Below are positions 22,186 to 44,528 of a stretch of DNA of 57,747 nucleotides, piece by piece (the stretch's first letter is position 1; every line of letters begins with the position of its first letter). The notes beneath the pieces are model-generated. The model was not told the DNA's origin, made no database searches, and worked only from the letters and a program-made list of their open reading frames with translations. Source of the stretch: a virus (lineage: Duplodnaviria; Heunggongvirae; Uroviricota; Caudoviricetes). The DNA is taken from the IMG/VR virus record IMGVR_UViG_2917393062_000003, positions 1-57,747 of that record. The stretch is one strand, 5' to 3'. The position numbers and the translations under genes are program-made.

Positions 22186-23270
22186 TGGCAAAAGTGGCTG
22201 ACGGGATCCGCTACGCCGAACGTGTTGTTGCAGGAGAAATTGTCGCTGGCGAATTTGTCCGTCTGGCCTGCCAGCGTTTTCTTGATGATCTGAAGTACGG
22301 CGAAGAGCGGGGGATTTATTTCAGTGAACCCCGTGCGCAGCACATCCTGAATTTCTACAAATTTGTGCCCCATGTAAAAGGGGCGCTGGCAGGCCAGCCC
22401 ATTGAACTGATGGACTGGCATGTATTTATCCTCATTAATATTTTTGGTTTTGTCATTCCGCTGGTCAATGAAGAGACCGGGGAAGTTGTCATGCGCAGCG
22501 ATGGCAGCGGACGTCCGGTGATGGTGCGCCGGTTCCGGACGGCGTACAACGAAGTCGCCCGTAAAAACGCAAAATCAACCCTGTCATCGGGTATCGGCCT
22601 GTATATGACGGGGGCAGATGGTGAAGGCGGTGCTGAGGTGTATTCAGCCGCAACCACGCGTGACCAGGCCAGAATTGTGTTTGAAGACGCCAAAAATATG
22701 GTCAGAAAAGCCCGGTCGACACTCGGGCGGTTGTTTGATTTCAACAAGCTGGCGATTTACCAGGAGCAGAGCGCATCAAAATTTGAACCGCTTTCCTCGG
22801 ATGCAAACAACCTGGACGGTCTGAACATCCACTGCGCCATTATTGATGAGCTGCATGCTCATAAAACCCGTGACGTGTGGGACGTTCTGGAAACGGCAAC
22901 CGGTGCCCGTCTGCAGTCCCTTTTATTTGGCATCACCACGGCTGGCTTTAACAAGGAAGGGATTTGTTACGAGCAACGCGATTACGCCATCAAGGTATTG
23001 CGAGGCTATAACAGCGACGTGGAGGGCGCGGTAAAAGACGACTCCTACTTTGCAATTATTTACACGCTCGATGAGGGAGATGATCCGTTTGATGAAACGG
23101 TCTGGCAGAAAGCGAATCCCGGCCTGGGCATCTGTAAACGCTGGGATGATCTGCGTCGTCTGGCGAAAAAGGCGAAGGAGCAGGTCTCGGCACGGGTGAA
23201 TTTTTTCACGAAGAAAGTAACATCACGCCGTAACAGCAGTGCGGCCTGTCCTGATTTTTTTAGTAACTAA
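22185..23270 (+). pseudogene. terminase large subunit, N-terminal part, interrupted at about 23212 by the inserted element
   Basis: aligns with the first ~315 aa of the intact TerL at 36471-38132, then runs into 19 codons of element DNA and a stop. Confidence 0.8.
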
Positions 23271-23342
23271 ATGAAAGAAAAAGATTTTTTCTTTTTCGTC
23301 GTTTTTGTTTTTTCTGGATGGTTCTGGCTGTTTTCATCATTT

Positions 23343-23363
23343 GTGTATTGCACTGTGTATTGC
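23343..23363. repeat. 21-bp subterminal repeat (tandem TGTGTATTGC units), left copy; candidate integrase arm-type site
   Basis: GTGTATTGCACTGTGTATTGC here and GTGTATTGCGCTGTGTATTGC at 38553-38573, direct orientation. Confidence 0.5.
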
Positions 23364-23383
23364 AAAAACGGGTTATAAATCAC

Positions 23384-24607
23384 ATGGCGCTAAACAAACT
23401 GAGCGATAAAAAACTTCGTTCCCTGCTTGGGCGCAGGAGTGAGAGGCAGGAAACCATCGCTGATGGTAACGGGCTTTCGGTACGGGTCAGTAAATACGGA
23501 TGTGTTAGTTTTGTTTTCTTTTACAGACTGGCGGGAAGGGGAACCGCGCCCATCTGGCTGACACTTGGAAAATATCCTGATCTGAGTCTCAAATCAGCGA
23601 GAGAGATGCGCGATCAGTGTCGAACTTGGCTTGCGGAGGGCAGAGATCCACGGATTCAGATAAAAATTGAACGGGAAGCCACCTTGCAACCTGTTACCGT
23701 TCGTGAGGCACTTGAATACTGGCTTGATAATTATGCAATGGATAAGCGTAGGGGAGCAGAACATATCAGGCAGTGCTTTGGTAAACATATTTATCCGGTG
23801 ATTGGTCATGTACCACTTAGTGATTGCTCTATATCTATGTGGATCAAGTGTTTTGACAAAATAAAAAAAGTAGCACCTGTACAGGCCGGAGCTTTGTTGC
23901 GTATATCAAAACAGGCGCTTAAATTTTGTAGGGTAAGAAAATACGCGATTAGTCATGAAATTGATGATCTTGAGGTCTGTGATGTGGGAAAAAAGTCTGC
24001 GCGAAGAAGCAGGGTTTTAACAGATGATGAAATCAGAGATTTATGGCGAAGTATTAATACTGATTATGACAATCACGAATTATCATATGAAAACCGAATT
24101 ATTTTACGTTTCCTGGTAGTTTTTGGTTGTCGACTGTCAGAAGTATTACTGTCGTCCTGGGTAGAGTGGGATTTTGATAAGAAATTATGGCGCGTTCCCG
24201 CTGATCATAGCAAAAATGGCAGGGAAATAATCAGACCGATTCCTGATGGCATGTTTAACTGGTTAGTTACGTTAAAAAAAATAACAGGTAACAAAGAAAA
24301 TGTGATTGGGTTTGATATGCGTCAGTGTACGGCAAGCGTAACTATCGGTAAGACATGGAAAAGGATGAAACACTCGGAGAAATGGACGGCGCATGATATG
24401 CGAAGAGTGTTTGCCACAAAACTAAGTGATCATGGTTTTGAACATAATGTGGTTGAACAGTTGCTTGGGCACACATTAGGCGGTGTTGCCGGGGTTTATA
24501 ACAGAAGCCAGTATATGGACAGAAAAAAAGAAGCTATGAACTGGTGGTACGACTATCTGAATAAGCAAATTAGTGGTGACAGTAATGATTCAAATAGTTA
24601 CGCGTGA
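23384..24607 (+). CDS. P4-like tyrosine integrase (N-terminal arm-binding-type domain)
   Basis: about 408 aa from MALNKLSDKKLRSL; catalytic motifs RLSEV, HDMRRVFAT, GGVAGVYNRSQY. Confidence 0.85.
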   Translation: MALNKLSDKKLRSLLGRRSERQETIADGNGLSVRVSKYGCVSFVFFYRLAGRGTAPIWLTLGKYPDLSLKSAREMRDQCRTWLAEGRDPRIQIKIEREATLQPVTVREALEYWLDNYAMDKRRGAEHIRQCFGKHIYPVIGHVPLSDCSISMWIKCFDKIKKVAPVQAGALLRISKQALKFCRVRKYAISHEIDDLEVCDVGKKSARRSRVLTDDEIRDLWRSINTDYDNHELSYENRIILRFLVVFGCRLSEVLLSSWVEWDFDKKLWRVPADHSKNGREIIRPIPDGMFNWLVTLKKITGNKENVIGFDMRQCTASVTIGKTWKRMKHSEKWTAHDMRRVFATKLSDHGFEHNVVEQLLGHTLGGVAGVYNRSQYMDRKKEAMNWWYDYLNKQISGDSNDSNSYA

Positions 24608-24806
24608 AGAACTTGAAAATGATAAAACAATCGACAGGATGATTAAGGAAGATGAATGTGCATGGTTAACAGCTCTTGGCAGGAGACACAGAGCATTACT
24701 TGAAAAGGAAGGAAAATTTCCACGTAAAATATGTATTGGCCCACAAACAAAAGTCTGGCGCTTATCTGAGGTGCTGGAATGGGTAAAGGGTGAATGGAAA
24801 CCCTGA
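24585..24806 (+). CDS. AlpA-family regulator
   Basis: EGKFPRKICIGPQTKVWRLSEVLEWV pattern; start ambiguous (24573, 24585 or 24639). Confidence 0.6.
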   Translation: MIQIVTREELENDKTIDRMIKEDECAWLTALGRRHRALLEKEGKFPRKICIGPQTKVWRLSEVLEWVKGEWKP

Positions 24807-24830
24807 ACTAAATTAAATGAGATATAATCA

Positions 24831-24855
24831 ACCCGTCTTTTGGCGGGTTTTTTTA
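24831..24855 (+). terminator. intrinsic terminator-like hairpin abutting the second alpA-like gene
   Basis: acccgtc-tttt-ggcgggt followed by 7 T. Confidence 0.4.
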
Positions 24856-24869
24856 TAGGTGATATTTTT

Positions 24870-25148
24870 ATGCAAAAATTTATTTATCCTACACCCGAAG
24901 AACGCATTCAGATTCTGAAAGATCATGGCGAACCGTATGATCGCCGTATACGCGAACATGAGTGTGCCAATCGTACCGGGCTTTCAAGAAGCAGACGTTG
25001 GGTACTTGAACAGGAGGGAGCATTTCCTGCTCGTGCTCATTTAGGGAAAGTGTCTGTTTCCTGGTTGCTCTCTGATGTGCTCTGGTGGGTTATGCATCCG
25101 CCAGGAGTAAAGGAAGTAAACAGCCCATACAAAAACGCCAATAAGTAA
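24870..25148 (+). CDS. second AlpA-family regulator
   Basis: EQEGAFPARAHLGKVSVSWLLSDVLWWV pattern. Confidence 0.6.
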   Translation: MQKFIYPTPEERIQILKDHGEPYDRRIREHECANRTGLSRSRRWVLEQEGAFPARAHLGKVSVSWLLSDVLWWVMHPPGVKEVNSPYKNANK

Positions 25149-25158
25149 TTACCGACAA

Positions 25159-25186
25159 CCCCGCACCACGCAATGCGGGGTTTTTT
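25159..25186 (+). terminator. rho-independent terminator
   Basis: ccccgca-ccacgcaa-tgcgggg followed by 6 T. Confidence 0.65.
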
Positions 25187-25205
25187 GTATGTGAGGTAGA
25201 AAGTG

Positions 25206-25799
25206 ATGAATAAAAATATTGCCGCGACGGGCAAGGGTGACGCACGTCATATGAAAAAATTCTGTGATATTCGTGATCTGGTCGTTCTGCGCTTTGATAG
25301 TGTGAACGTTCGCGTGGTGTATCTGAACGGCGATCCGTGGTTTGTTGGCGCTGATGTGTGTGCGGCGCTGGAAATTAGCAACGTTACCGATGCTGTTTCA
25401 GTTCTGGATAGCGATGAGGTAATGACCCTAGCTTTAACCGAGGGTCATTCAGGTAAGCGTGGTGGTGCCAGAAGTTGGAATGTTGTATCAGAATCAGGTT
25501 TTTACAAGTTGATCGCCAGAAGTCGCAAAGCTGTTAATCCTAGCACGTTCGCCCATCGTTTCAGTAATTGGGTATTCAGAAATGTGATACCGGGTATCAG
25601 AAAAACGGGGGCTTATGGTATCCCGTGGGGCGCATTACAGGATTTTTCCCGCCGCAAAGAGCAATACCAGATAAGTGCCAGCGAGAAGGGGAGGGAGCTA
25701 CAGGCATGTAAGCGCAAAAAGCGTGAGCTGGAGGAAGAAGAAAAAAGGCTGATACGTGAATACCAGCCTGAGTTTTACTTTGGTGAGCGTATTCAGTAA
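25206..25799 (+). CDS. Bro-N domain protein (antirepressor-like)
   Basis: N-terminal Bro-N pattern FVGADVCAALEISNVTDAVS...FYKLIARS...FAHRFSNWV. Confidence 0.7.
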   Translation: MNKNIAATGKGDARHMKKFCDIRDLVVLRFDSVNVRVVYLNGDPWFVGADVCAALEISNVTDAVSVLDSDEVMTLALTEGHSGKRGGARSWNVVSESGFYKLIARSRKAVNPSTFAHRFSNWVFRNVIPGIRKTGAYGIPWGALQDFSRRKEQYQISASEKGRELQACKRKKRELEEEEKRLIREYQPEFYFGERIQ

Positions 25800-26449
25800 C
25801 CACACGCGGTGTTGATTATACGGTACATCGTGTTGACCGGGAAGCTACCCACCAGCAAGGCAAAATCTTCTGCTAAAAAATGACATATGACCAGTCGTCC
25901 GGAAAGCATGAAATTTTACAAAAATGGAAAATGAAGATTTTTATTGTGCTGGTGGGTAAAAACAAAAAGCGCCCCGTTACCGGAGCGCCATTGCGAACAA
26001 TTAACCTACTGCGCAAAAAATGAATCTGTGCGGGGGGATTATATCAACCGTGGTCGAAATGACCATAGTTGCAGGATAACAGGCAAAACAAAGGCCACCC
26101 GCTACGGTGGCCCCTCGACACAAGCTACACGTTATCCCCAACGCATGAGCATAACCAACAATGCCACATTTACGGCTGGTGGGCAAATCCTGAGCTGTTC
26201 TGTAATTACAGGAACTACGGCATTGTCGCGGTTAGGTTATGCTCAACTTTTTTTCAACTCTATATCGCAAGCACGCCGTAATATATCGCCTTCATTGCTT
26301 CCGCAAAGATTCTTTTTCTCGAAGCATGATTTTAAGATAAAGGCGGCGACAATTAGAACAATCGCACAGAGTGCACAATTTTTAAGTTTTGGCATCTTTT
26401 ACTCCTATGGTTGCCGCCGTGATTCCTCACACCACGGCGCTGATAGTAA

Positions 26450-26629
26450 TTATTCTGATTCTTTGGCCTTGCGGCGCTGGCGGCGTTTGATCTCGCCACG
26501 CATGGCTGTAACGATAAACTGCGCGTCTGTTTCGTTTTCCTCTTTGACCAAATTCATTTCGCTTAAAACTTCTAGAGGGATTCTAGCCGTTTTTTGTTGT
26601 GATTTGTTGTTGGTTGTACCCGTTGGCAT
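26450..26629 (-). CDS. small regulator, possibly ribbon-helix-helix type
   Basis: 59 aa from MPTGTTNNK; very strong SD AAGGAGG; divergent from the rightward operon. Confidence 0.45.
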   Translation of the reverse strand: MPTGTTNNKSQQKTARIPLEVLSEMNLVKEENETDAQFIVTAMRGEIKRRQRRKAKESE

Positions 26630-26691
26630 TACTAGCCTCCTTACTGTTAGGTGGCGTTCAGTATACGTAGAAAAAAAAAATAAAAAAAAGC

Positions 26692-26742
26692 TTGAAGTGC
26701 AAGTCACCTAAAAGTAGCATAATCCTCAAAGGTGACTTGCAC
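26692..26742 (+). promoter_or_regulatory. rightward promoter bracketed by a perfect 13-bp inverted repeat (operator)
   Basis: -35 TTGAAG, 17-nt spacer, -10 TAGCAT; inverted repeat GTGCAAGTCACCT (26697-26709) / AGGTGACTTGCAC (26730-26742); upstream A-tract. Confidence 0.5.
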
Positions 26743-26823
26743 CTTAAAGACAAAGCCCCGCAAGTGTCGTTACCACTCACAGGGCTTCTAACCACCAACG
26801 ATAACGAGAGTATCGAGGTAGCT

Positions 26824-27030
26824 ATGTTAAATCATACCACACACCCGCAAGGGCGGGACTCGCACAACCTGAATAAATATATCTGGCGTTTTATCGCTCT
26901 GAGCACGGCACAACCGCGCGTGATTACCATTGAGGCCACCAGTGAACAGGAAGCCTGTCAGCAATCACCGGCTGGCTGCGTGATGGTATTCGCCGCCCAT
27001 ATTCGTCAGGGGGTGCACCATGTGCAATAA
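26824..27030 (+). CDS. hypothetical small protein (satellite rightward operon gene 1)
   Basis: ATG 26824 with SD GAGG. Confidence 0.4.
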   Translation: MLNHTTHPQGRDSHNLNKYIWRFIALSTAQPRVITIEATSEQEACQQSPAGCVMVFAAHIRQGVHHVQ

Positions 27031-27256
27031 CACCCGTCCGGACTCAGCCGCCGAAGCTATCAGAACGCTAATGCACGCGCTGATTGATATTTCATGCACG
27101 GCAGCAACCGCAGAAAAACACATTACCAGAGAGACGGAATATGCAGGGGCGATAATCCCGCATTCGCTGGCATATGTGCAGCTTAGTGCCGACATGGCAC
27201 TGGATGAGGCAGGCAAAATTCTTACCGCAGATATCCAGGGGGGACGCCATGCATAA
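27020..27256 (+). CDS. hypothetical small protein
   Basis: overlapping, translationally coupled ORF. Confidence 0.4.
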   Translation: MCNNTRPDSAAEAIRTLMHALIDISCTAATAEKHITRETEYAGAIIPHSLAYVQLSADMALDEAGKILTADIQGGRHA

Positions 27257-27461
27257 TCATGAAGCGCACTTACCTGTAGTGCTGAATGTGCCATCAGATT
27301 ATACGGGGCGCGTACTGGTGTATCTGGAAAAAGGCCGGGTTAAATGCCAGTGCCGTTTAATGGAAAACGAATTTATCAGCACTCTTGCGGGATTTTCTGA
27401 AATGCTCACTAAATCTGGTGTTAGTGCAGACCAGTTACGCGGGGGCGATTATGCGAAATAA
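27249..27461 (+). CDS. hypothetical small protein
   Basis: ATG 27249 overlapping upstream stop. Confidence 0.4.
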   Translation: MHNHEAHLPVVLNVPSDYTGRVLVYLEKGRVKCQCRLMENEFISTLAGFSEMLTKSGVSADQLRGGDYAK

Positions 27462-27669
27462 ACGTGATATTGAAGACCTGGCATTTGAAGCCCTGCACTC
27501 TGCGAAAAAGATCAGGGAAGTCGTCAATATGTGGATGAACAGCCTTAGCACCGATGAATCCGATAGCAGAGAAGAAATTCTTATTTCTTTGTTGTTAGAC
27601 CTGGCAAATACACAGGTTTCTCTGACATCTGATATTGAGCTCGCCGCTAAAAAGCTGCCTCTGGAGTAA
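27451..27669 (+). CDS. hypothetical small protein
   Basis: ATG 27451 overlapping upstream stop. Confidence 0.4.
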   Translation: MRNKRDIEDLAFEALHSAKKIREVVNMWMNSLSTDESDSREEILISLLLDLANTQVSLTSDIELAAKKLPLE

Positions 27670-27799
27670 AAAAACATGAAAAAGAAAAAATTCTGGCTTT
27701 ACTGCCAGCGGTCACGCTCGGCCTGAAATCCGCCCCGGTGATATTTTCCGGGATAAATACGGCAGCACGATAACGATTAAAACTGTCGATGATTTTCGT

Positions 27800-27991
27800 G
27801 TGACCTATATCCGCGAAGGTTATGCGCATCCCTGCGTGTCGTCACATATGCGCTTTGACAGGGAGTTCACCTTGGTAAGCAAAGCACCACCAGCAGAATT
27901 AAGCGACATCGACAGAATCATGCGCGTTACAGGAATGGAACGCATTAAGGCAGTACGTGAAATTATTCGTGAACGGGGAAAGGCAAAATGA
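27800..27991 (+). CDS. hypothetical small protein (GTG start)
   Basis: 63-aa ORF ending in ATGA overlap with the replication gene; weak RBS. Confidence 0.25.
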   Translation: MTYIREGYAHPCVSSHMRFDREFTLVSKAPPAELSDIDRIMRVTGMERIKAVREIIRERGKAK

Positions 27992-30111
27992 AGCGCGCAC
28001 CAAACTTAAAGCACCAGCCAGCCGATAAAATGACGGAGGTTATCATCTTTGCGGGTAGTGATGCGTGGAGCCATGCGAAAGAGTGGCAGGAATGGGCAGG
28101 TAAGCATATTGCCGCCGACAATGTGCCGCCTGTCGTTCTGTCAGATGAACACCTGAAAGATATTACCGGTTATCAAATTATTGATGATAGTCGTCAGTGT
28201 GTGCGTGTTTACCGCGCAGGGCACATCACTGAACGTAGCCTTACACAGATCGTCACGTTGCTGGCTGTGGCTGGCGTGAAGACCGTATACGAATACGCGG
28301 GGATAACTGACACCAGCCCGGCGGATTTATCCGACCAGTTGCCTCGCCTCAAAGACGAATACGAGCGCGGGGAAAGTCTGGTGTTGCCCTTAAAGAAAAA
28401 AATCACAGAAAGCCCGGGTGATGATGAATTAAAGCCCCGCGTTGAAAGCCGCGCCGATGGTGTTTTCTGGGTAACGCCAAAAGTGGATAAGCAGTCAGGC
28501 GAAATTATCCGGCCTGAGACGTGGTTATGTTCCCCGCTTGAACTACTGGGAACGGGGACAATCGGTAAAGAGCATTACCGCGTGATGCGCTGGAAAAAAT
28601 TCGCAAATCATGAAGTCATCACAATGGCGGTTCCGTGCGGTGGCATTGGCGACCGTGACGGCTGGCGGCTGCTGAAAGACCACGGACTGAACGTAACAAC
28701 TAACGGCAAAAATAGGGCTATCCTGGCTGACTGGATGCAGTTAAGCGGAAGCCATGAGGAATGGCAGTTAAGCACAACAACGGGCTGGCATTTTGGCGCG
28801 TACATCATGCCGGACGGTTCGGTCATTGGTGATTGCGAAAAGCCAGTCCTGTTTACCGGAAAAACGGCTGCTGTTAATGGCTATTCCGTGGCAGGAACGG
28901 CGGAGGGTTGGCGCGATACCGTGGCGCGGCTGGCTGGTGGTAATCCGTCCATGATGCTGGGTGTGGCGGTATCGTTATCCGCACCATTAATCGGGCTGGT
29001 GGGTGCTGACGGCTTCGGGGTACATCTTTTCGAACAGTCATCGGCAGGGAAAACCACCACACAGAACATCGCATCCAGTTTATGGGGAGAGCCGGACGCA
29101 CAACGGCTGACCTGGTACGGCACGGCGTTAGGTATCGCCAACGAGGCCGAAGCACATAATGACGGGCTGTTACCCCTGGATGAAATAGGTCAGGCCGGAA
29201 ACGCGCGGGAGGTGTCCACGTCAGCCTATACGCTGTTTAACGGTTCCGGGAAATTACAGGGGGCAAAGGACGGCGGCAACAGGGAGATAAAACACTGGCG
29301 AACGGTGGCAATCAGTACCGGAGAAATGGACGTTGAAACATTCCTCAAAACGGAAGGGATAAAAGTCAAGGCGGGGCAGCTTGTCCGCCTGCTTAACGTG
29401 CCAATGGAAAAAGCCACACAATTTCACGAATACAGCACCGGAAAGGCACACGCAGACGCGTTAAAGGATGCCTGGACAGAAAATCACGGGGCGGCGGGGC
29501 GTGAATGGGTTAAATGGTTGGCAGACCATCAGCAGGAGGCAAAGGACACGGTAAGGGCATGCCGTGAACGGTGGCGCAACCTGATACCGGAGAGCTACGG
29601 CGAGCAGGTACACCGCGTGGGTGAGCGTTTCGCCATACTGGAGGCCGCGCTTGTGCTTTCCGGTCATGTTACTGGCTGGGATGTTCAGGCGTGCCGCGAT
29701 GCCATACAGCATAATTTTTATGCCTGGGTGAAGGAGTTCGGCACGGGTAACAGGGAGTTTAAACAGATGGTTGAACAGGCAGAGGCTTTTTTAGCGTCGT
29801 TCGGATTCAGCAGATACCTTCCGTGGCCCAACACCGACGAGCGTGATTTACCGATTAAAGAGCTTGCCGGATACAGAAAGGGGAGTATCAGAAACGAAGA
29901 TGACGAGTTCCGTTTTTACACGTTCCCGCATGTATTTGAGGGTGAGATAGCACAGGGATTTAATCCGTCTCACTTTGCCCGCGCGTTGAGTGCTGCCGGA
30001 ATGCTGGAAGCGGGTAACGATCGCCGTTACAAGAAAAAGGCGCTCGGCAAAATTGGGGGGAAGCAGCATGTTTTTTACGTGCTGATGTTCCAGCCTGAGG
30101 CAGAAGATTAA
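27988..30111 (+). CDS. satellite replication protein with P-loop NTPase (DUF927-like primase/helicase class)
   Basis: 707 aa; Walker A SSAGKTT; iterons immediately downstream; family name from memory. Confidence 0.6.
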   Translation: MKRAPNLKHQPADKMTEVIIFAGSDAWSHAKEWQEWAGKHIAADNVPPVVLSDEHLKDITGYQIIDDSRQCVRVYRAGHITERSLTQIVTLLAVAGVKTVYEYAGITDTSPADLSDQLPRLKDEYERGESLVLPLKKKITESPGDDELKPRVESRADGVFWVTPKVDKQSGEIIRPETWLCSPLELLGTGTIGKEHYRVMRWKKFANHEVITMAVPCGGIGDRDGWRLLKDHGLNVTTNGKNRAILADWMQLSGSHEEWQLSTTTGWHFGAYIMPDGSVIGDCEKPVLFTGKTAAVNGYSVAGTAEGWRDTVARLAGGNPSMMLGVAVSLSAPLIGLVGADGFGVHLFEQSSAGKTTTQNIASSLWGEPDAQRLTWYGTALGIANEAEAHNDGLLPLDEIGQAGNAREVSTSAYTLFNGSGKLQGAKDGGNREIKHWRTVAISTGEMDVETFLKTEGIKVKAGQLVRLLNVPMEKATQFHEYSTGKAHADALKDAWTENHGAAGREWVKWLADHQQEAKDTVRACRERWRNLIPESYGEQVHRVGERFAILEAALVLSGHVTGWDVQACRDAIQHNFYAWVKEFGTGNREFKQMVEQAEAFLASFGFSRYLPWPNTDERDLPIKELAGYRKGSIRNEDDEFRFYTFPHVFEGEIAQGFNPSHFARALSAAGMLEAGNDRRYKKKALGKIGGKQHVFYVLMFQPEAED

Positions 30112-30132
30112 CCCCTGTGTGAGGTGAAAAGT

Positions 30133-30257
30133 TGCGGGTTATGCGGGTTATCCTGTGTATAAGTGCATTAACTGTATGAATAAAAAGGAAATCAATAACC
30201 CGCACGTAACCCGCAAAACGGCAGTTATAACCCGCAAAAGTGCGATTATAACCCGCA
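30133..30257. repeat. iteron cluster (TAACCCGCA units in both orientations), candidate replication origin
   Basis: two inverted-orientation units at 30133-30150 and four direct units between 30196 and 30257. Confidence 0.6.
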
Positions 30258-30320
30258 GAATTTCACCGTAAGGGTGTAAACAAGCGTAACAATCAACGTT
30301 AAAACCGGAGAACAGACAGC

Positions 30321-30743
30321 ATGACAGCACAGATAGCAGCTTACGGGCGGCTGGTGGCTGACCCGCAGTTAAAGACCACCAGCAAAGGGACACAAATGGC
30401 GATGGCGAGTATGGCAGTTCCCCTGCCGTGCAGCCAGGCAGATGACGGAACGGCGACGATGTGGTTATCCGTCCTGGCGTTTGGCAGACAGGCCGACGCA
30501 CTGGCAAAACACCACAAAGGCGAACTGGTGAGCGTGGCGGGTAACATGCAGGTAAGCCAGTGGACAGGTCAGAACGGCGAAATGCGGCAGGGTTGGCAGG
30601 TCATCGCAGACAGCGTAATCAGTGCGCGAACGGCGCGACCGGGCGGCAAAAAAGGCCAGCAGGGCCAGGCTACTGACGCACTGAACAGGGCAAAACAACA
30701 GGCGGGGAATGATGATCCGTACGGGGACGGGATACCGTTTTAA
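30321..30743 (+). CDS. SSB-like OB-fold protein with acidic C-terminal DGIPF tip
   Basis: 140 aa; Gly/Gln-rich linker and C-terminal DDPYGDGIPF resembling the SSB DDDIPF tail. Confidence 0.55.
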   Translation: MTAQIAAYGRLVADPQLKTTSKGTQMAMASMAVPLPCSQADDGTATMWLSVLAFGRQADALAKHHKGELVSVAGNMQVSQWTGQNGEMRQGWQVIADSVISARTARPGGKKGQQGQATDALNRAKQQAGNDDPYGDGIPF

Positions 30744-30758
30744 GCAGTGAGGTACAGC

Positions 30759-31040
30759 ATGATTAAAGACAGCAAAGCGGAAGAACTGGAGGCTAAAGGG
30801 CTGTACCGGAGAGCGGCGGCGCGTTGGGCTGATGTTATGTGGCTGGTGAGCACTGACAAGGAGCGCGAACAGGTGGCAAAGCGTCGCGCGGAATGTATCC
30901 GTAAGGCAGCGCGCCAACCAGTCATACCGGATAATTTCGGAATACTGAAAGAGGCCATAAACCGCACACATACCGGGATGGGCTTACAGAAACCTGGCGG
31001 TGAGATGTTCAGGAACTACCCGAAAAAAAAGGATAATTGA
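30759..31040 (+). CDS. PerC-like regulator (tentative)
   Basis: MIKDSKAEELEAKGLYRRAAARWADVM; family assignment from memory. Confidence 0.4.
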   Translation: MIKDSKAEELEAKGLYRRAAARWADVMWLVSTDKEREQVAKRRAECIRKAARQPVIPDNFGILKEAINRTHTGMGLQKPGGEMFRNYPKKKDN

Positions 31041-31085
31041 TAACGGTTGTTAACTGTTTCTGGTATCGTGGCAGCAGGAGGAAAC

Positions 31086-31334: not shown

Positions 31335-31343
31335 AATAATAAT

Positions 31344-31372
31344 GGCCTGGTATTTTCCAGGCCATTTTTTTT
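31344..31372. terminator. rho-independent terminator between convergent genes
   Basis: ggcctgg-tatttt-ccaggcc followed by 8 T. Confidence 0.65.
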
Positions 31373-31844
31373 AGAAGTCGATCTCTGTATCGCGATTAAA
31401 TTCATCGCTAAGGTAAAGTGCTTCGCTTGGGCATTTTCCGTTTTCCAGTAATGTTTCCCAGAAATCTTTATCGAAACACCCCTCAAGATACAGATAGCGG
31501 CAGATGTGAAGTAAATCACTTCGTGTCCATCCGTGCATGCTGCTACTTGTTACACCATATTCACTTTCTAGTTTATAGAATGTGAGCGCCTCCCGGTCGT
31601 GCCAGGCTTTGCACAGACGATCGTATATCTTTTTAGCTTTGTTTTTAGATGTGCCGAAAAACTCTTCGTAAATTTCATGTGGGCGAGCAGGAATACTTCC
31701 GTCGCCATCCTGCAAGAAAGGATAAACATCTGCCTCCCAGGCATACACGTAAGAATCGCTGAACTCATCATAGTGTTTACCAAGGTGGAGAATCTGCAAT
31801 CGTTGCTGAATGAACATTGCTTTTTTCAGTTCATTTTCTGACAT
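31371..31844 (-). CDS. opposite-strand cargo protein of unknown function (candidate accessory or defence gene)
   Basis: 157 aa; only minus-strand gene in the satellite core; noticeably lower GC than neighbours; own upstream region. Confidence 0.55.
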   Translation of the reverse strand: MSENELKKAMFIQQRLQILHLGKHYDEFSDSYVYAWEADVYPFLQDGDGSIPARPHEIYEEFFGTSKNKAKKIYDRLCKAWHDREALTFYKLESEYGVTSSSMHGWTRSDLLHICRYLYLEGCFDKDFWETLLENGKCPSEALYLSDEFNRDTEIDF

Positions 31845-32138
31845 AGTTCGTTCCTCCTGATTGACGAGCAGAAAATGTACGGAACAGCTTATTTATTTTT
31901 TCAGGTTTTGTAAATTATTTGTTCGTGGTTGTTCCAGGTTGTTCGGTGATTCTGGCTGATGTTTACATACTGATTTTTATGTATATGTTGGCGTGTGGCA
32001 CTCAGACGTGAGCCGCCACAATGCCGCCTGACCCCCTGCGCGATGCCGGGTTGATCTGCGAGATGCCGGGAGTGTCGGGCGGCGCTCCCTCCGTGTTGGT
32101 TTCACGTCCTGAATCTTAACCAATACGAGAAAACCTTC

Positions 32139-33284
32139 ATGAAGAAATTAATCGAACTCCGCCAGCAAAAAACCGCCCTGAAAAACCAGATGCGATCCCT
32201 GCTGGAAAAAGCCGACAGTGAAAACCGCAGCCTGAACGATGACGAGGGCAAACAGTTTGATGAACTGCGTGCAAAAGCCGATTCCCTCGACACAGAAATT
32301 TCCCGTCTTGAAGCTGTTGCGGATGAAGAACGTAACCAGCCAGGTGTTTCCGTCGAAGAGAAAATCACCAAAGACGAACTGCGCTCTTACATTCTGACCG
32401 GGGAAACCCGCAACCTGTCCGGCAGTGTCCCGGCTGATGGTGGTTATACGGTTATCCCGGAACTGAACAGAGAAATTATGCGTCAGCTTTCTGATGAATC
32501 GGTGATGCGTAAAATCTGTACCGTTAAAACCATTCACAGCAATGAATTTAAGCAACTGGTTTCTGCCGGGGGTGCGGTCGTTGAACACGGCGAAGAAGGT
32601 GCGGCACGTAACCAGACGGCAACACCAAAACTGAATGAAGTCAGTATCCGCCTGTATCCGATCTACGCTTACCCGAAAACCACTCAGGAAATTATCGATT
32701 TTTCCGAAGTCGATATTATGGGCTGGTTATCTTCTGAAATTGGCGACACTTTCGTTGATACCGAAGAAATGGATCTGGTTTCTGGTGATGGCGAGAAAAA
32801 AGCTAAAGGTTTCCTGGCTTTTCCGCGCACTGCGGATAACGACAAAACCCGTCCTTTCGGTACGCTCCAGACGAAAAAAGTTACTGGCAGTCTCAGCGCC
32901 GACATGCTGATTGACCTGAAATTTACGCTGCGCAATAAGTACCGCAAAAAAGCTGTATGGGTGATGAACTCAAATACAGCCGCCTCCGCACAAAAACTGA
33001 AAAATGCCACTGGTGATTACATCTGGCGCGATCGTTTACAGGCTGGTGATCCTGATTCTCTGCTGGGGCTTCCGGTTGAATATCTGGAATTTATGCCGGA
33101 CGGTGTGATTGCAGTAGGTGACTTTAAGCGCGGTTATTTCATCGTTGACCATGAAACCGGTACGCGTACCCGTCCGGATTTCAGCGAACCCGGATTCATT
33201 AACATCTATACCCAGAAATATCTGGGCGGTGGTGTGGTGGATTCGAACGCCATCAAGATTCTGGAAATTCAGGCTGGCAAGTAA
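32139..33284 (+). CDS. HK97-family major capsid protein (satellite)
   Basis: 381 aa; paralogous in architecture to prophage MCP at 41463-42686. Confidence 0.8.
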   Translation: MKKLIELRQQKTALKNQMRSLLEKADSENRSLNDDEGKQFDELRAKADSLDTEISRLEAVADEERNQPGVSVEEKITKDELRSYILTGETRNLSGSVPADGGYTVIPELNREIMRQLSDESVMRKICTVKTIHSNEFKQLVSAGGAVVEHGEEGAARNQTATPKLNEVSIRLYPIYAYPKTTQEIIDFSEVDIMGWLSSEIGDTFVDTEEMDLVSGDGEKKAKGFLAFPRTADNDKTRPFGTLQTKKVTGSLSADMLIDLKFTLRNKYRKKAVWVMNSNTAASAQKLKNATGDYIWRDRLQAGDPDSLLGLPVEYLEFMPDGVIAVGDFKRGYFIVDHETGTRTRPDFSEPGFINIYTQKYLGGGVVDSNAIKILEIQAGK

Positions 33285-33333
33285 TGAGCAAAGGGGGCTT
33301 CGGCCTCCTTTTTCAGCTTTATGGAGTACACCG

Positions 33334-33894
33334 ATGAAAAATACCGATTTTGAAATCCGTACATCTGAACTGACCGCCAGTGATAAAAAACTGGTGGGTT
33401 ATGCCGTTCGCTGGAACAGCCTTTCAGAAATTATCTGGGACGAATTCCGCGAACAGTTTACGCCGGGGGCTTTTGCTGACTATCTGGCGGCGGGTAATGA
33501 TGTGCGCTGCCTGTATGAGCATGACTATACCCGACTGCTGGGGCGCACCAAATCCGGAACACTGGTACTGACTGAGGACAACACCGGGCTACGTTTTGAA
33601 CTGACACCGCCTGATACCCAGCTTGGAAAAGATGTGCTTACGCTGGTGGAGCGTGGCGACATTACAGGAATGAGCTTTGGCTTTCGCGCATTATGCGAAG
33701 AATGGAATATCGCGCAAAAACCGTATCTGCGCACTGTTACCGCCGCAGAACTTCGTGAAATCACGATAACGTCAATGCCTGCTTATCCCGAATCTGGCGT
33801 GGAGATTGCCCGCCGTTCGTTGTTTGCACAGCACCCTGAATTACGCCCGACAGGAAATAATCGTCATCGCTGGGCTGAACTGGCGGGGTTGTGA
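33334..33894 (+). CDS. HK97-family prohead protease (satellite)
   Basis: about 186 aa from MKNTDFEIR with SD GGAG; paralog of 40798-41448. Confidence 0.75.
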   Translation: MKNTDFEIRTSELTASDKKLVGYAVRWNSLSEIIWDEFREQFTPGAFADYLAAGNDVRCLYEHDYTRLLGRTKSGTLVLTEDNTGLRFELTPPDTQLGKDVLTLVERGDITGMSFGFRALCEEWNIAQKPYLRTVTAAELREITITSMPAYPESGVEIARRSLFAQHPELRPTGNNRHRWAELAGL

Positions 33895-33895
33895 T

Positions 33896-35110
33896 ATGTG
33901 GTGGCCTTTTAGTCGTAAAAAAAGCGATCTGCGTAACCTGTCCATTGATGATTTTCTGGCGCTGTCCGGCGTACCGAATACCGGATCCGGAGAATATGTT
34001 TCTGCCGGGACGGCTGAATCATTGCCTGCTGTGATGAACGCGGTTTCTGTCATCGCTGAGGCGGTGGCCACGATGCCGTGTTATCTGTATCTGGTACGTA
34101 ATGACAAGGGCAGGGAGGCGCGGGAATGGCTGGACAGTCACCCGGTCGATATTCTGCTGAATGAGCAGCCTAATTCGTGCCAGACACCTTACCAGTTTAA
34201 ACGCACAATGATGCGTCACTGCCTGCTGAACGGTAACGCCTATGCGGTTATTGAGTGGGGGCGGGACGGTCAGCCAAAATCACTTCATCCTTATGCGCCG
34301 GGTTGTGTTGTACCGGAACGCACTGGCGCACACAAATACCGCTATACCATCACCGAACCCTATACAGGAACGGTGCGCACGTATTTACAGGAAGAAGTCC
34401 TGCATCTCCGCTATGCCTCGGATGATGGCTTTCTGGGACGTTCCCCCGTCACGATTTGCCGTGAGGCGCTGGGGCTTGGCCTTGCTCAACAGCGTCACGG
34501 AGCCAGCATTATGAAAGATGGCATGATGGCGGCAGGGGTTATTACGTCAGGCGAATGGCTGGACGGCGTGAAAGGTAAACAGGCATTAGACGCCCTGGAA
34601 CGCTACAAGGGGGCGAAAAATGCCGGAAAAACGCCAATCCTTGAAGGGGGCATGGATTACAAGCAACTGGGGATGAGTAACCAGGATGCGGAATGGCTGG
34701 CCTCCCGTCGCTTCTCCATTGAAGACATCGCCCGGATGTTCAACGTATCGCCTATTTTTCTGCAGGAATACAGCAACAGCACCTACAGCAATTTCAGCGA
34801 GGCAAGCCGCGCGTTTCTGACCATGACAATGCGCCCATGGCTGGCGAACTTCGAACAGCAAATTAAGGCCGCTTTGCTGGTGGCTTCTCCCGTACCTGGT
34901 ACCCGTTATCTGGTTGAGTTTGATTCAGCCGATTTATTACGCGCCACCCCTACCGAACGTTACGCCACGTATGAGAAAGGGATTAAGAACGGGATCATGA
35001 ATCCGAACGAAGCCCGCGAACGTGAGGGGATGCCGCCGCGTGAAGGTGGCGACGAATTCAGCCAGGCATGGAAGCAGACGGTGGAAATTAAAGGTGAAAA
35101 AGATGAGTGA
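33896..35110 (+). CDS. portal protein (satellite)
   Basis: about 404 aa from MWWPFSRKK; paralog of prophage portal 39579-40820. Confidence 0.75.
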   Translation: MWWPFSRKKSDLRNLSIDDFLALSGVPNTGSGEYVSAGTAESLPAVMNAVSVIAEAVATMPCYLYLVRNDKGREAREWLDSHPVDILLNEQPNSCQTPYQFKRTMMRHCLLNGNAYAVIEWGRDGQPKSLHPYAPGCVVPERTGAHKYRYTITEPYTGTVRTYLQEEVLHLRYASDDGFLGRSPVTICREALGLGLAQQRHGASIMKDGMMAAGVITSGEWLDGVKGKQALDALERYKGAKNAGKTPILEGGMDYKQLGMSNQDAEWLASRRFSIEDIARMFNVSPIFLQEYSNSTYSNFSEASRAFLTMTMRPWLANFEQQIKAALLVASPVPGTRYLVEFDSADLLRATPTERYATYEKGIKNGIMNPNEAREREGMPPREGGDEFSQAWKQTVEIKGEKDE

Positions 35111-35402
35111 AGAAAAAATTACACCTGATGAGGTCAGGGCACATCTTCGCCTTGATAACTTCTACGATGAAGGCGAACTTCTGAAAATGTATACCGATGC
35201 GGCGCTGGAAGCCTGCCAGAAGCATATCGGGAAACGTTTTGAAGACGGGCTGGAATTTACCCCGGCAATACGTGTTGGTTGCCTGATGTACATTGCTTTC
35301 CTGTACGAGAACAGGGAAGCGGTTTCACCTGTGGAGCAGTCTGAACTGCCTATGGCTATTTCTGCGCTCTGGTCGGTTTATCGTGATGTAGGGGTGTACT
35401 GA
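35103..35402 (+). CDS. head-tail connector (gp6-like) protein (satellite)
   Basis: 99 aa; HLRLDNFYDEGELLK pattern shared with prophage 42733-43056. Confidence 0.65.
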   Translation: MSEEKITPDEVRAHLRLDNFYDEGELLKMYTDAALEACQKHIGKRFEDGLEFTPAIRVGCLMYIAFLYENREAVSPVEQSELPMAISALWSVYRDVGVY

Positions 35403-35842
35403 TGCCGTGGCAACCATTAAGGCGATGCACTGAGCCGGGCTGTAATAAGCGCGTGAAGTCCGGCAAGTGCGAAGATCACAGGCGGGCTGCATGGCGTGCA
35501 GAGGATGCCAGACGGGGACACCGCCGCGCGCGCGGGTATTCCCGACAGTGGGACAAATACCGCGCCCTGTACCTGAGCAAAAACCCGTTATGCGTGCGTT
35601 GTCTGGCTAAGGGGATTTATACGCCAGCTCTTGTGGTGGATCACATCATTCCCATCAATGGCGGCGGTGATGTTCTCTTCTGGCCTGAGTGGAATCACCA
35701 GGCATTGTGCCAGACGTGCCACAACCGTAAGACGACACGGGAAGATCCAGCCACGAAAGCGAACCGTAAGGCGGGCATGTATCGCGAGCAGGAAGAACGG
35801 GCGGCACATCGTAACGACTGGATGTATGGCGATGATGACTGA
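35402..35842 (+). CDS. HNH endonuclease (satellite, terminase-associated)
   Basis: 146 aa; Cys-rich, VDHIIPINGGG...CQTCHNRKT motif. Confidence 0.8.
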   Translation: MPWQPLRRCTEPGCNKRVKSGKCEDHRRAAWRAEDARRGHRRARGYSRQWDKYRALYLSKNPLCVRCLAKGIYTPALVVDHIIPINGGGDVLFWPEWNHQALCQTCHNRKTTREDPATKANRKAGMYREQEERAAHRNDWMYGDDD

Positions 35843-36011
35843 ACAGGAGCAAAACAGGCTGATACGTGGACTGATAAGGCAGCGTGACACATGGAAGGCA
35901 CAGGAGACAGGGCACAAAGCCAACAGGACAGGGCGCACAGAACGCACCACAGCGAAGCGATTAACCGACCGTGACCGCGAGGTCATGGAATGTTTTCGCA
36001 ATCGCTGGTGA
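35826..36011 (+). CDS. hypothetical small basic protein
   Basis: 61-aa ORF overlapping HNH stop. Confidence 0.25.
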   Translation: MAMMTEQEQNRLIRGLIRQRDTWKAQETGHKANRTGRTERTTAKRLTDRDREVMECFRNRW

Positions 36012-36130
36012 GGCCGTCAGAGGGGGTGGGGGAGGTTTTCAGGACAAAACCGTCCCTGCCGGACACCGACCGCCTCCTCAAATTTTTGTGCACGGAAATT
36101 TTTTTGAAAATAATTGGGCGAAAAAAGAAC

Positions 36131-36487
36131 ATGGCAAGACCACCAAAAGCCCCCGCTTACCTGGATGAAATCGCGGTCAGGCAGTGGAAGGAAAAATCGC
36201 GCCAGCTTTCCGGGCGGGAAGACCTTACCCCCGCCGACTGGAGCAATCTGGAACTGTATTGCGTTAACTACTCCATATACCGCAAAGCCGTCGAAGACCT
36301 TGCGACGCGCGGCTTCAGCATTGTTAACAGTCAGGGCAGCGAGAGCAGAAACCCCGCCCTGAGCGCAAAGGCTGACGCGGAAAGAATAATGATCAAAATG
36401 GCTTCTTTGCTGGGTTTTGACCCGGTAAGCCGCCGCAGAAATCCACCGGAAACAGAGGAAGAGGACGAGCTTGACCGCCTGGCATGA
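36131..36487 (+). CDS. terminase small subunit (satellite)
   Basis: start MARPPKAPAYLDEIAVRQW; paralog of 21703-22185. Confidence 0.65.
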   Translation: MARPPKAPAYLDEIAVRQWKEKSRQLSGREDLTPADWSNLELYCVNYSIYRKAVEDLATRGFSIVNSQGSESRNPALSAKADAERIMIKMASLLGFDPVSRRRNPPETEEEDELDRLA

Positions 36488-38132
36488 GTACGCAGAAGGC
36501 GTAAAAAACGGCAAAATTACGGCCTGTAAACGACTGAAACAGGCCGTTAAACGGTATTTTTCTGACCTTGAAAACCCCCTTTACACGTTCGATCCGGAGG
36601 TCGTGGAGCGGTTTATTGCCTTTTCTAGGGTGTGTCCGCACGTAAAAGGCGCAATGCGCGGTAGCCCCATTGAGCTGGAGCCGTGGCAGCAGTTCGCCTT
36701 TGCCTGCATCCTGGGCTTTAAGGTTAAGGCCACCGGACGGCGCAAATACACCAGCGCATTCATTGAAGTACCGCGAAAAAATGCCAAATCCACGGTCGCC
36801 GCTATCCTGGCTAACTGGTTTCTGGTTATGGAACACGGGCAGCAGGATATTTACACCGCCGCCGTGAGTCGTGATCAGGCGCGGATCGTGTTTGATGATG
36901 CGCGTCAGATGTGCCTTTTATCCCGACCGTTACGAAAGCGGGTAAATATTCAGGCGCACAAGGTGATACACCCGAAAACCAACAGCCTGTTAAAGCCACT
37001 GGCAGCAAAAGCGGCAACCATTGAGGGGACAAACCCGAGTCTTGCCATTGTGGATGAATATCACCTGCACCCTGACAACGGGGTTTATTCCGCGCTTGAA
37101 CTGGGAATGGGGGCGCGTCCGGAGGGGTTATTATTTGCCATCACCACATCGGGGAGCAACGTTGTTTCAGCCTGTAAACAACACTACGACTATTGCTGCC
37201 AGATACTGGATGGTGAAGAGGTGAACGAATCCATGTTCGTGCTGATTTACGAGCTGGATGATGAAAGCGAGGTTGACGATCCGGCGATGTGGATAAAGGC
37301 GAATCCCAATATCGATGTTTCCGTCGATCGTGAAAAACTGGCCTCAACCATCCAGAAAGCGCGGGGTATTCCGTCGCAGTGGGTGGAAATGCTCACCAAG
37401 CGATTCAATATCTGGTGTCAGGGGGCTACGCCGTGGATGGGTAACGGTGCATGGGCGGAGTGCGCCGGAACGTTCGCGGAGGCGGATTTATACGGGCAGG
37501 AGTGCTACGCGGGGCTGGACTTATCATCAACCAGCGATATTTCCAGCGTGTGCTATGCCTTTCCGGTCGGTAAAAAGATTATGCTGGTTTCCCGTCACTA
37601 TCTGCCGGAATTTCAGCTACAGAACCCCGCCAATAAAAACCGCGCCATCTATCGCCAGTGGGTAAAGGCGGGCTGGATACGCACAACACCGGGTGACTGC
37701 ATTGATTATGACCGTATCCGTGATGACATCATGGCGGATGCAGAGAATTTCAATATCAGGCTGGTGGGCTTCGATACATGGAACGCCACGCACCTGAGGA
37801 CGCAGCTACAGGGGGCAGGATTTGAGGTGGAGCCGTTCCCGCAAACATACCTTCGTTTCAGTCCGGCGGCGAAATCGTTCGAAGTTTTTGTTAACCGGAA
37901 GGTGATTGTTCATCGTGGTGATCCGGTGCTGGCCTGGTCAATGAGTAATGTTGTGATGCAGAGTGACGCGAACGCCAATATCAAGCCGAACAAGAAAAAA
38001 TCATCCAACAAGATAGACCCGAGCGTTGCGGCGCTGATGGCGTTTGGCACATTCCAGGCAGAGCATGAGGAATTTGCATTCGATATGAGCGACAGCCACA
38101 AAGAGCGGCTTGCGGCGTTTGATGGTGTGTAA
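36471..38132 (+). CDS. terminase large subunit (satellite, intact)
   Basis: 553 aa; TTG start overlapping terS; PRKNAKST Walker A-like; homologous to both split prophage terL parts. Confidence 0.85.
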   Translation: MTAWHEYAEGVKNGKITACKRLKQAVKRYFSDLENPLYTFDPEVVERFIAFSRVCPHVKGAMRGSPIELEPWQQFAFACILGFKVKATGRRKYTSAFIEVPRKNAKSTVAAILANWFLVMEHGQQDIYTAAVSRDQARIVFDDARQMCLLSRPLRKRVNIQAHKVIHPKTNSLLKPLAAKAATIEGTNPSLAIVDEYHLHPDNGVYSALELGMGARPEGLLFAITTSGSNVVSACKQHYDYCCQILDGEEVNESMFVLIYELDDESEVDDPAMWIKANPNIDVSVDREKLASTIQKARGIPSQWVEMLTKRFNIWCQGATPWMGNGAWAECAGTFAEADLYGQECYAGLDLSSTSDISSVCYAFPVGKKIMLVSRHYLPEFQLQNPANKNRAIYRQWVKAGWIRTTPGDCIDYDRIRDDIMADAENFNIRLVGFDTWNATHLRTQLQGAGFEVEPFPQTYLRFSPAAKSFEVFVNRKVIVHRGDPVLAWSMSNVVMQSDANANIKPNKKKSSNKIDPSVAALMAFGTFQAEHEEFAFDMSDSHKERLAAFDGV

Positions 38133-38212
38133 CGGAATGGATGAGAGAGGACAATGCTCATTTAATGGAATAAATTTTCAGTATTACCGGTACCCACTTT
38201 CAGGGATGTTTT

Positions 38213-38370
38213 TGCGGGTTATTTGAGGGGGAGGTGCGGGTTATTTTGAATGTCTTGCGGGTTACATTCTGGCTGATATTTAAATACGTTGTTTTTTAAC
38301 GCATTGATATTAAAGAGTAAAAAATACTTAGCACGCGAAGATAACCCGCTAACCCGCATAACCCGCGCTG
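38213..38370. repeat. second iteron cluster (AACCCGC units), crr-like
   Basis: three rc units at 38213-38264 and three direct units at 38341-38370; same repeat unit as 30133-30257. Confidence 0.55.
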
Positions 38371-38552
38371 TTTTGTATATATATACGAAAAATTGCATTC
38401 AGGGGGGGATCGAAATTTCTACTGCCTCTTATCTCTTTGAGTGCTCACCTCGTCAGATTGTTACACACAAGAAATAAAAAATGCTTCGCGATGGTAGGTC
38501 GAATCACTGTATCAAAAAACGGTGTGTATCAGCATTAAAACAATACAGATAC

Positions 38553-38573
38553 GTGTATTGCGCTGTGTATTGC
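38553..38573. repeat. 21-bp subterminal repeat, right copy
   Basis: GTGTATTGCGCTGTGTATTGC; one mismatch to left copy at 23343-23363. Confidence 0.5.
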
Positions 38574-38659
38574 TTGATGATTTATAAAGACTGTTTTTTC
38601 ATGTTAAACGATTGATATACAGGTGATTTTAAAAAACTTGAAATATTCTCACGAAACAC

Positions 38660-41448: not shown

Positions 41449-41462
41449 CCAGGAGAAAAATA

Positions 41463-42686: not shown

Positions 42687-42732
42687 TGCGGTTTTTTTTG
42701 TGCCCGCGTAATGGCGGGCACAGGAGGAAAAT

Positions 42733-44519: not shown

Positions 44520-44528
44520 GAGTCCCTC

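Follow-up and report, generated by a model that had tools for sequence, protein, structure and literature searches.

A probable helper-embedded phage-inducible chromosomal island with capsid-forming cargo in the terL gene of a contractile-tailed prophage

We analyzed a 57,747-nucleotide stretch of DNA (the window), comprising positions 1 to 57,747 of the IMG/VR record IMGVR_UViG_2917393062_000003, a virus of the Caudoviricetes. The window holds a prophage whose terL gene is split by a 15,443-bp element at 23206-38648 (one copy of its TCACGAA core counted). Judged from its sequence, this element is very probably a helper-embedded phage-inducible chromosomal island (HE-PICI) of the A:Terminase_1:246 site group that carries the cargo of a capsid-forming PICI (cf-PICI). 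The first-pass annotation of this DNA had recognized a satellite-type element of 15.4 kb within the prophage terL, together with a potential helper around it, and had taken the arrangement for an undescribed one. The satellite and its location are borne out by the data below. The novelty is not, since Tommasini, Mageeney and Williams (NAR Genomics and Bioinformatics 2023, PMC10111431; preprint July 2022) had already named the configuration "helper-embedded PICI" and included the A:Terminase_1:246 site, and the att flanks of one of their entries, Ese18, match the window exactly.

Results

Insertion of the element into the prophage terL

Genes were called from a listing of open reading frames (ORFs) and their Pfam matches, and the ORFs of 23213-38648 were additionally scanned with PHROGs and NCBIfam (Table 1). 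Of the TerL_nuclease profile, the ORF at 22185-23270 covers positions up to 63, and the ORF at 38660-39385 continues from position 64. Joining of 22185-23212 to 38656-39385 gave a 585-codon terL ORF with zero internal stops, in which the 7 bp matching the attP core fall in codons 340-342 and the interruption at codon 342. Direct comparison of the two junctions revealed a 7-bp repeat, TCACGAA, at 23206-23212 and 38649-38655. The element had initially been placed at 23213-38648; that location stands, and the 7-bp core now defines its ends slightly more sharply. At the left junction, the 5′ fragment of terL continues into 19 unrelated codons followed by a stop (23268-23270), and a stop codon also precedes the 3′ fragment. 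The element lies on the same strand as the helper late operon.

According to PMC10111431, the integrases of HE-PICIs form one clade, and a doubled motif specific to these elements, tgTGTATTGCantgTGTATTGCa, is found on either side of the attP center, about 81 bp upstream of it and about 132 bp downstream. The window has exactly two copies of this motif, at 38554-38573 and 23344-23363, where 0.00 were expected. Counted from edge to center, its distances to the core center are about 79 bp (38554-38573) and about 133 bp (23344-23363), although the published measuring convention may differ. Excision is predicted to generate an attP of CTTGAAATATTC-TCACGAA-GAAAGTAACATC (3′ flank also given as GAAAGTAACATCACGCC) and a restored terL attB of GTGAATTTTT-TCACGAA-ACACATGAATG (3′ flank also given as ACACATGAATGTGTGG). 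The junction sequences indicate that an integrase of the HE-PICI clade recombined the attP core with the matching 7 bp in the prophage terL. Because attP brings in no replacement sequence, the nuclease domain of the helper terminase stays split for as long as the element is integrated.

Relationship to cataloged HE-PICIs

The HE-PICI paper maps 491 such elements to 14 prophage sites in cognates of lambda late genes, A:Terminase_1:246 being one of these sites (PMC10111431). Its Supplementary File 1 lists Ese18.15.A_Terminase_1_246 (PDHZ01000026.1/199942-215384) from Escherichia sp005843885, with Ese18.59.potB as the helper, as well as Eco8512.15.A_Terminase_1_246 (CP027447, att identity "tcacgaa"), Eco33 (E. 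coli 042), and Eco146 (UMNF18); the TCACGAA core is listed for both Ese18 and Eco8512. The window contains the published Ese18 attL (163 nt) and attR (154 nt) sequences without a single mismatch, the span is likewise 15,443 bp, and no structural difference from Ese18.15.A_Terminase_1_246 was found. The Eco8512 attL differs from the window at 5 positions. At the DNA level, the integrase gene is 99.8% identical to that of Eco8512.15.A_Terminase_1_246, and CP027447 is the best E. coli match. On sequence grounds, the window appears to be the cataloged Ese18.15.A_Terminase_1_246 locus or an identical copy of it, and an origin from Escherichia sp005843885 would account for the ceiling of 97-99% on the E. 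coli matches. De Sousa and Rocha 2023 also refer to the HE-PICI paper, as their reference 47.

Like the A:Terminase_1:246 elements, the window element sits in a prophage terL, co-oriented with it, and has the TCACGAA core and the doubled TGTATTGC motif in both arms. It also follows the four-zone order of HE-PICIs, with an Integration zone (Int and two AlpA proteins), a Bro zone (Bro-N), a Replication zone (DUF927, SSB, and iterons), and a Late zone (capsid and terminase). Insertion into a late gene, a short att identity without replacement sequence, the arm motif, the site-specific integrase subclade (assigned by DNA identity), and the zones are all found together in this element.

Comparison with Eco567.11capE, an HE-PICI in a lambda-like capsid E gene, showed the same integrase clade, arm motif, and nesting, and both satellites carry a homologue of the gene they interrupt. 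The two differ in their target (capsid E versus terL) and in their cargo: Eco567.11capE, 11 kb long, has neither terS nor terL and presumably relies on the cos packaging of its helper, whereas the window element has a full capsid and terminase set. Prophage-like elements in sporulation and competence genes likewise interrupt a gene that becomes whole again only on their excision, an analogy drawn by the HE-PICI authors; here, however, the gene concerned is part of another mobile element, and the satellite rather than the cell is presumably served by the switch. In its available sections, the HE-PICI paper treats the late genes as "captured" clusters, without considering this group as satellites that form capsids and encode a terminase of their own (PMC10111431). 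What goes slightly beyond the catalog is a site group of cf-PICI-type elements, the absence of the second head-tail (head-closure) gene, and a resident prophage with a contractile tail.

Distribution of empty and occupied terL sites

We searched 5,426 complete E. coli genomes for the site. A 993-nt query over the rebuilt junction detected an uninterrupted terL, with 95-99% identity, in 905 of the genomes and in 12 phage records, so that the check for an intact terL in relatives, proposed with the first-pass annotation, came out strongly positive. The empty site was also present in at least 120 IMG/VR contigs. As for the occupied site, the left junction (terL to int) was found in 36 of the 5,426 genomes, the right junction in 34, and the occupied junction in 14 IMG/VR contigs. 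This integrase type (98.8-99.8% nucleotide identity) was likewise present in 36 genomes, equal to the count of the terL-int junction, and nowhere else in the collection. The recurrence of the junctions in 34-36 closed genomes, together with the confinement of the integrase to the same count, rules out an assembly artifact at the junctions and shows that terL is the dedicated attachment site of the element. Thus, the possibility that the window is a chimeric assembly of a prophage and an unlinked island, which the first-pass annotation had raised against itself, has a negligible probability, given these closed genomes, the 14 contigs, and the published att alignments. A search of the GTDB species representatives for the attL junction gave no match.

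At intact sites, the core exists in at least four synonymous alleles. Among the matches listed for the intact IMG/VR sites (at least 120; L021-L140), TTACCAA was present in 94, TCACGAA in 14, TCACAAA in 8, and TCACCAA in 2, and a further 2 have TTACCAA followed by G instead of A (TTACCAAG). The occupied IMG/VR sites (L006-L019) carry only TTACCAA (10) or TCACGAA (4), and in every fetched genome attL and attR share the same allele, either TTACCAA or TCACGAA. An escape from integration through synonymous core changes in terL was considered and is unsupported: in this sample of at least 120 sites, the core varies at third-codon positions, and this variation does not exceed that of third positions nearby.

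Two further observations concern the site. The segment of the satellite's own terL that is homologous to the helper attB (37470-37510) reads CTCACCAAG and includes TCACCAA, one mismatch away from each of the cores in use (TCACGAA and TTACCAA), with diverged flanks. In NZ_CP122620.1 (ETEC4090), the left junction lies at about 3,033,469, the integrase at about 2,897,688, and the right junction at about 2,884,641; the terL junctions are about 149 kb apart, and two places match the integrase. This layout suggests an inter-prophage rearrangement or two copies.

Gene content and kinship with cf-PICIs

All identified satellite genes are on the plus strand, as are the helper late genes, except two small minus-strand genes, and each satellite gene examined is full-length with a strong Pfam family match. 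The families named in the first-pass annotation (a P4-like integrase, two AlpA proteins, Bro-N, SSB, major capsid protein [MCP], protease, portal, connector, HNH, TerS, and an intact TerL) were recovered with Pfam, and its P-loop replication protein with iterons matches DUF927. No tail or lysis families, and likewise no cI/Q-type genes, were seen among the scanned ORFs of 23213-38648 with Pfam, PHROGs, and NCBIfam, in line with the first-pass annotation. The divergent small repressor named there is upheld in part: a small minus-strand YlcI/YnfO homologue lies at about 26453-26629, without a Pfam match in the window, and a repressor function is a candidate role only. The true start of int is probably the ATG at 23385.

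E. coli O157:H7 EDL933 carries, between roxA and phoQ, a 15.4-kb island composed of int, alpA, a DUF927 rep gene, and genes for SSB, PerC, capsid, protease, portal, two head-tail proteins, HNH, TerS, and TerL. This island matches the description of EcCIEDL933, the cf-PICI prototype (Alqurainy et al. 2023; He et al. 2025 preprint). Amino acid identities between the window element and EcCIEDL933 are 93% for TerL, 88% for TerS, 84% for HNH, 83% for Rep, 81% for portal, 75% for MCP, 71% for SSB, 63% for protease, 60% for PerC, and 58% for the adaptor, and only 42% for the integrase. Both elements are about 15.4 kb long, are syntenic from DUF4222 to TerL, share iterons, and lack tail and lysis genes. 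In contrast, EcCIEDL933 occupies a chromosomal site and has one AlpA, no Bro-N, and two head-tail genes (head closure and connector), whereas the window element has two AlpA proteins, Bro-N, only the gp6-like head-tail gene, and a second iteron cluster at its right end. The int/alpA/rep backbone, a size within about 10-18 kb, the element's own capsid, protease, portal, HNH, TerS, and TerL, and the lack of lysis and tail modules are features of a cf-PICI. Altogether, gene content and gene order are consistent with the capsid-forming satellite that had been proposed.

The EcCIEDL933 head-closure protein (L001 12654-12992) had zero tblastn matches in the window at an E value of <2. A single head-tail gene is also the layout in E. 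coli 042, in KFu019, in CP027447, and in a chromosomal element of E. coli strain 2824. The latter has a replication and packaging body about 95% identical to that of the window element, located at a chromosomal PICI site (cspD/clpS) with a different integrase. This makes a cf-PICI body combined with a different integration module the best description of the element.

The complete second set of head and packaging genes, drawn from the same Pfam families as those of the host prophage, could also be read as a second HK97-like prophage fragment or a duplicated head module, acquired by homologous or illegitimate recombination, and not as a satellite at all. We regard this as highly improbable. The head and packaging proteins of satellite and helper share only 27-35% amino acid identity (29-33% to the helper TerL), too little for homologous recombination, and the boundaries consist of a 7-bp core with integrase arm motifs. 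Moreover, the left half has the layout of a PICI (int, AlpA, Bro, DUF927 rep, and SSB), the element as a whole has none of the lysis, tail, or cI/Q-type genes, and the strain 2824 body occupies a classic PICI site.

The P4-like character of the element is more limited. It shares with P4 the Arm-DNA-bind_3 tyrosine integrase family, an AlpA-like regulator, Bro-network and Icd-like genes, and helper-dependent virion parts. P4 integrates at a tRNA gene and uses the capsid proteins and the terminase of P2. The core P4 set (Psu, Delta, Sid, Ash/Eps, and the alpha primase) was not detected in the Pfam, PHROG, and NCBIfam scans, in which only the integrase, AlpA, and Icd-like genes were shared with P4.

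Of 13 TAACCCGC copies in the window, 12 fall in two clusters within the element (1.6 expected by chance), in agreement with the early prediction of iterons near the replication gene. One cluster, just 3′ of rep, is the putative origin. In EcCIEDL933, these iterons likewise follow rep and are found nowhere else. The cluster at 38214-38366 mirrors the architecture of the putative origin and is kept in the CP027447 element, whose replication gene is of the RepA type, not DUF927; this right-end cluster may be another origin, may act in regulation, or may be a relic.

The remaining genes include a PerC-family regulator; PerC/Pch proteins are activators of virulence loci in pathogenic E. coli. The slot between replication and packaging modules is a frequent site of accessory or defense genes in satellites, and the gene in this slot (31371-31844) lies in a low-GC stretch (0.42) next to a bidirectional hairpin at 31341-31366. 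Both this gene and the ORF at 25944-26711 had zero matches in Pfam, PHROGs, NCBIfam, and PADLOC. In the Bro zone, the segment 25968-26115 holds a strong minus-strand promoter-like site (10/12 matches, extended TG) flanked by two minus-strand terminator-like hairpins. P4-like elements encode immunity RNAs in that zone; a search for P4-type immunity RNAs (Rfam C4 and isrK) yielded zero matches at an E value of ≤0.1.

Table 1. Features of the terL-embedded element and of the surrounding prophage in the window
Feature	Position	Strand	Evidence and remarks
Helper Q antiterminator	16893..17588	+	Pfam
Helper GH108 endolysin	19637..20179	+	Pfam
Helper HNH	21206..21556	+	Pfam
Helper TerS	21703..22185	+	Pfam
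Helper terL, 5′ part	22185..23212	+	ATPase domain and first ~60 nuclease residues; TerL_ATPase E = 6.7e-28; TerL_nuclease positions 2-63
attL core TCACGAA	23206..23212	+	Crossover identity block; junction comparison
Doubled TGTATTGC motif, P′ arm	23342..23363	+	Just 5′ of likely int start; pattern count; PMC10111431
P4/PICI-type tyrosine integrase	23318..24607	+	Pfam Arm-DNA-bind_3 and Phage_integrase
AlpA-family gene 1	24573..24806	+	Phage_AlpA, E = 2.5e-9; terminator-like hairpin after it, 24830-24849
AlpA-family gene 2	24840..25148	+	Phage_AlpA, E = 7.2e-10; terminator-like hairpin after it, 25157-25182
Bro-N domain protein (Bro zone)	25203..25799	+	Pfam Bro-N, E = 2e-16
YlcI/YnfO-family small gene, candidate small repressor	about 26453..26629	-	Divergent; tblastn with proteins of related elements, 38-53% identity, E down to 9e-14
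Icd-like protein (host cell-division inhibitor family)	26692..27030	+	NF033153, E = 1e-15; phrog_6196 ("transcriptional repressor"), E = 3e-52
DUF4222 protein and 707-aa DUF927 replication protein (primase/helicase type)	27800..30111 (DUF927 gene 27988-30111)	+	Pfam DUF927, E = 5.8e-46
Putative replication origin	30134..30256		Six TAACCCGC iterons (two inverted, four direct) around an AT-rich spacer; just 3′ of rep gene
SSB	30321..30743	+	Pfam, E = 1.5e-15
PerC-family regulator	30747..31040	+	Pfam, E = 2.9e-35
Accessory gene, 157 aa	31371..31844	-	Variable slot between replication and packaging modules; protein at same place in E. coli KFu019 99% identical
HK97-type MCP	32139..33284	+	Phage_capsid, E = 3.6e-60
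S78 prohead protease	within capsid module 32139..35402	+	Pfam Peptidase_S78, E = 2.7e-45
Portal	within capsid module 32139..35402	+	Pfam Phage_portal, E = 8.4e-93
gp6-like head-tail adaptor, single	35103..35402	+	Pfam; phrog_40 ("head-tail adaptor Ad1")
HNH endonuclease	35402..35842	+	Pfam HNH
Small ORF, packaging module	35826..36008	+	ORF listing
TerS, P27 family	ORF 35990..36487	+	Pfam Terminase_4
TerL, intact, 553 aa	36471..38132	+	Pfam TerL_ATPase and TerL_nuclease
Second cluster of six TAACCCGC iterons	38214..38366		Three inverted, then three direct, AT-rich spacer; between satellite terL and attR
Doubled TGTATTGC motif, P arm	38554..38573	+	Pattern count; PMC10111431
attR core TCACGAA	38649..38655	+	Junction comparison
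Helper terL, 3′ part	38656..39385	+	Remaining nuclease domain; Pfam TerL_nuclease positions 64-283, E = 1.4e-37
Helper head and tail genes 3′ of terL	39579..57184	+	Pfam: portal, protease, MCP, gp6-like connector, tail terminator, tube, tape measure, Mu gpP-like baseplate, baseplate J, tail fiber
Helper head-completion protein	43020..43469	+	Pfam
Helper tail sheath	44687..46183	+	Pfam

The resident prophage

The tail of the resident prophage is contractile and Mu-like, with a sheath, a tube, a gpP-like hub, and baseplate J (window 42707-57184). Up to the end of the MCP gene (42707), its terL/portal/MCP module is 97.7% identical in CP027447 and 042, where it is joined to lambda-like siphovirus tails, and the mosaic breakpoint coincides with that gene end. 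In HK97-like systems, cos is expected in the HNH-terS intergenic region, which for the satellite would be at about 35.85-36.13 kb; the corresponding regions of helper and satellite have no meaningful similarity, so no shared cos site was seen. A terminator scan detected no plus-strand terminator-like site between the 5′ part of terL and int, the only hairpins being those after each alpA gene.

Near the integrase end of the prophage, an ORF6N-domain protein (394-951, minus strand) has a weak PADLOC match to the candidate defense family PDC-S05 (E = 6e-7). In the closest complete E. coli relative, 2014C-3075, the prophage with the terL satellite encodes Stx1d (L002 7797-9023; NZ_CP027447.1 1397796-1399022), and a stx-sized ORF was not found at the corresponding place in the window.

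Discussion

Taken together, the att sites, the zones, and the cargo argue for an HE-PICI with a cf-PICI body, and its known relatives suggest how such an element would operate. For the HE-PICI 11capE, the original paper reports measurements of composite excision, composite replication, and then satellite excision (PMC10111431). For EcCIEDL933, induction depends on alpA, and small self-made capsids are joined to helper tails (bioRxiv 10.1101/2022.09.08.507074, 10.1101/2025.02.11.637232). By analogy, SOS induction would cause the whole composite to excise and replicate, with the satellite copied passively. Q-antiterminated late transcription of the helper would then run through the 5′ part of terL into int and alpA, probably past the terminators that follow the alpA genes, so that the satellite would be switched on late. 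Excision of the satellite would restore the helper terL and release a 15.4-kb circle, which would use a DUF927/iteron origin of its own for replication. The satellite would build small HK97-type capsids from its own proteins, fill them by means of its own HNH-TerS-TerL set (about 30% identical to that of the helper), and take tails from a helper. Because the head-closure gene is absent, the head-closure protein would probably come from the helper too; as speculation, the lineage may rely on the helper head-completion protein (43020-43469). Packaging of helper DNA would be possible only after the satellite has left.

Several points weigh against an active element of this kind. For excision, read-through transcription, capsid formation, and tail use alike, the model is carried over from HE-PICI and cf-PICI relatives. 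A search of IMG/VR for the attP junction of the excised element gave no match, and only one of the two head-tail genes expected of a cf-PICI is present. In cf-PICIs, the pair of adaptor and connector sets which tails join, and non-contractile siphovirus tails have been reported (cf-PICI literature); with its contractile tail, the resident prophage may thus not be a competent tail donor. Furthermore, the HE-PICI paper states that no helper or satellite virions were recovered in the model strain and that many helpers look truncated (PMC10111431). All of these latter observations, as well as the combination of the element with the contractile-tail module in just 2 of the 5,426 E. coli genomes (UMNF18 and ETEC4090), would also suit a stranded or domesticated HE-PICI, that is, one by descent that can no longer be mobilized, within a prophage that is disarmed by a permanently broken terminase and is not a working helper. 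Such a state is improbable in view of the integrity of both partners: besides the full-length satellite genes, the element retains undamaged att cores and arm motifs on both sides, its excision would leave a complete terL, and the helper integrase, Q, lysis, head, and tail genes have full-length family matches. In addition, near-identical elements with matching attL and attR alleles occur in many unrelated strains, which points to recent, repeated integration.

A more far-reaching proposal is that the terL-embedded HE-PICIs are functional capsid-forming satellites that hold the packaging motor of the helper hostage in cis, package themselves with an orthogonal HNH-TerS-TerL set, borrow head closure from the resident prophage after the loss of their own tail-proximal head-closure gene, and dock onto either siphovirus tails (042 and 2014C-3075) or contractile tails (the window, UMNF18, and ETEC4090). 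As a whole, this proposal is tentative, and we consider it rather unlikely to hold.

The interpretation of the locus as an HE-PICI with cf-PICI cargo has consequences for both partners. It would place the satellite within cis reach of helper replication and late transcription, and it would make the packaging of helper DNA dependent on excision of the parasite. These points were recognized with the 2023 description of HE-PICIs, so the window adds an instance, not a concept. Given that the arrangement is already known, the residual value of this locus lies in its combination of cf-PICI cargo with a helper-embedded lifestyle and in the questions of the contractile tail and of head closure. Finally, as the terL of the Stx1d prophage in the closest E. 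coli relative illustrates, this satellite arrangement can sit in medically relevant prophages.

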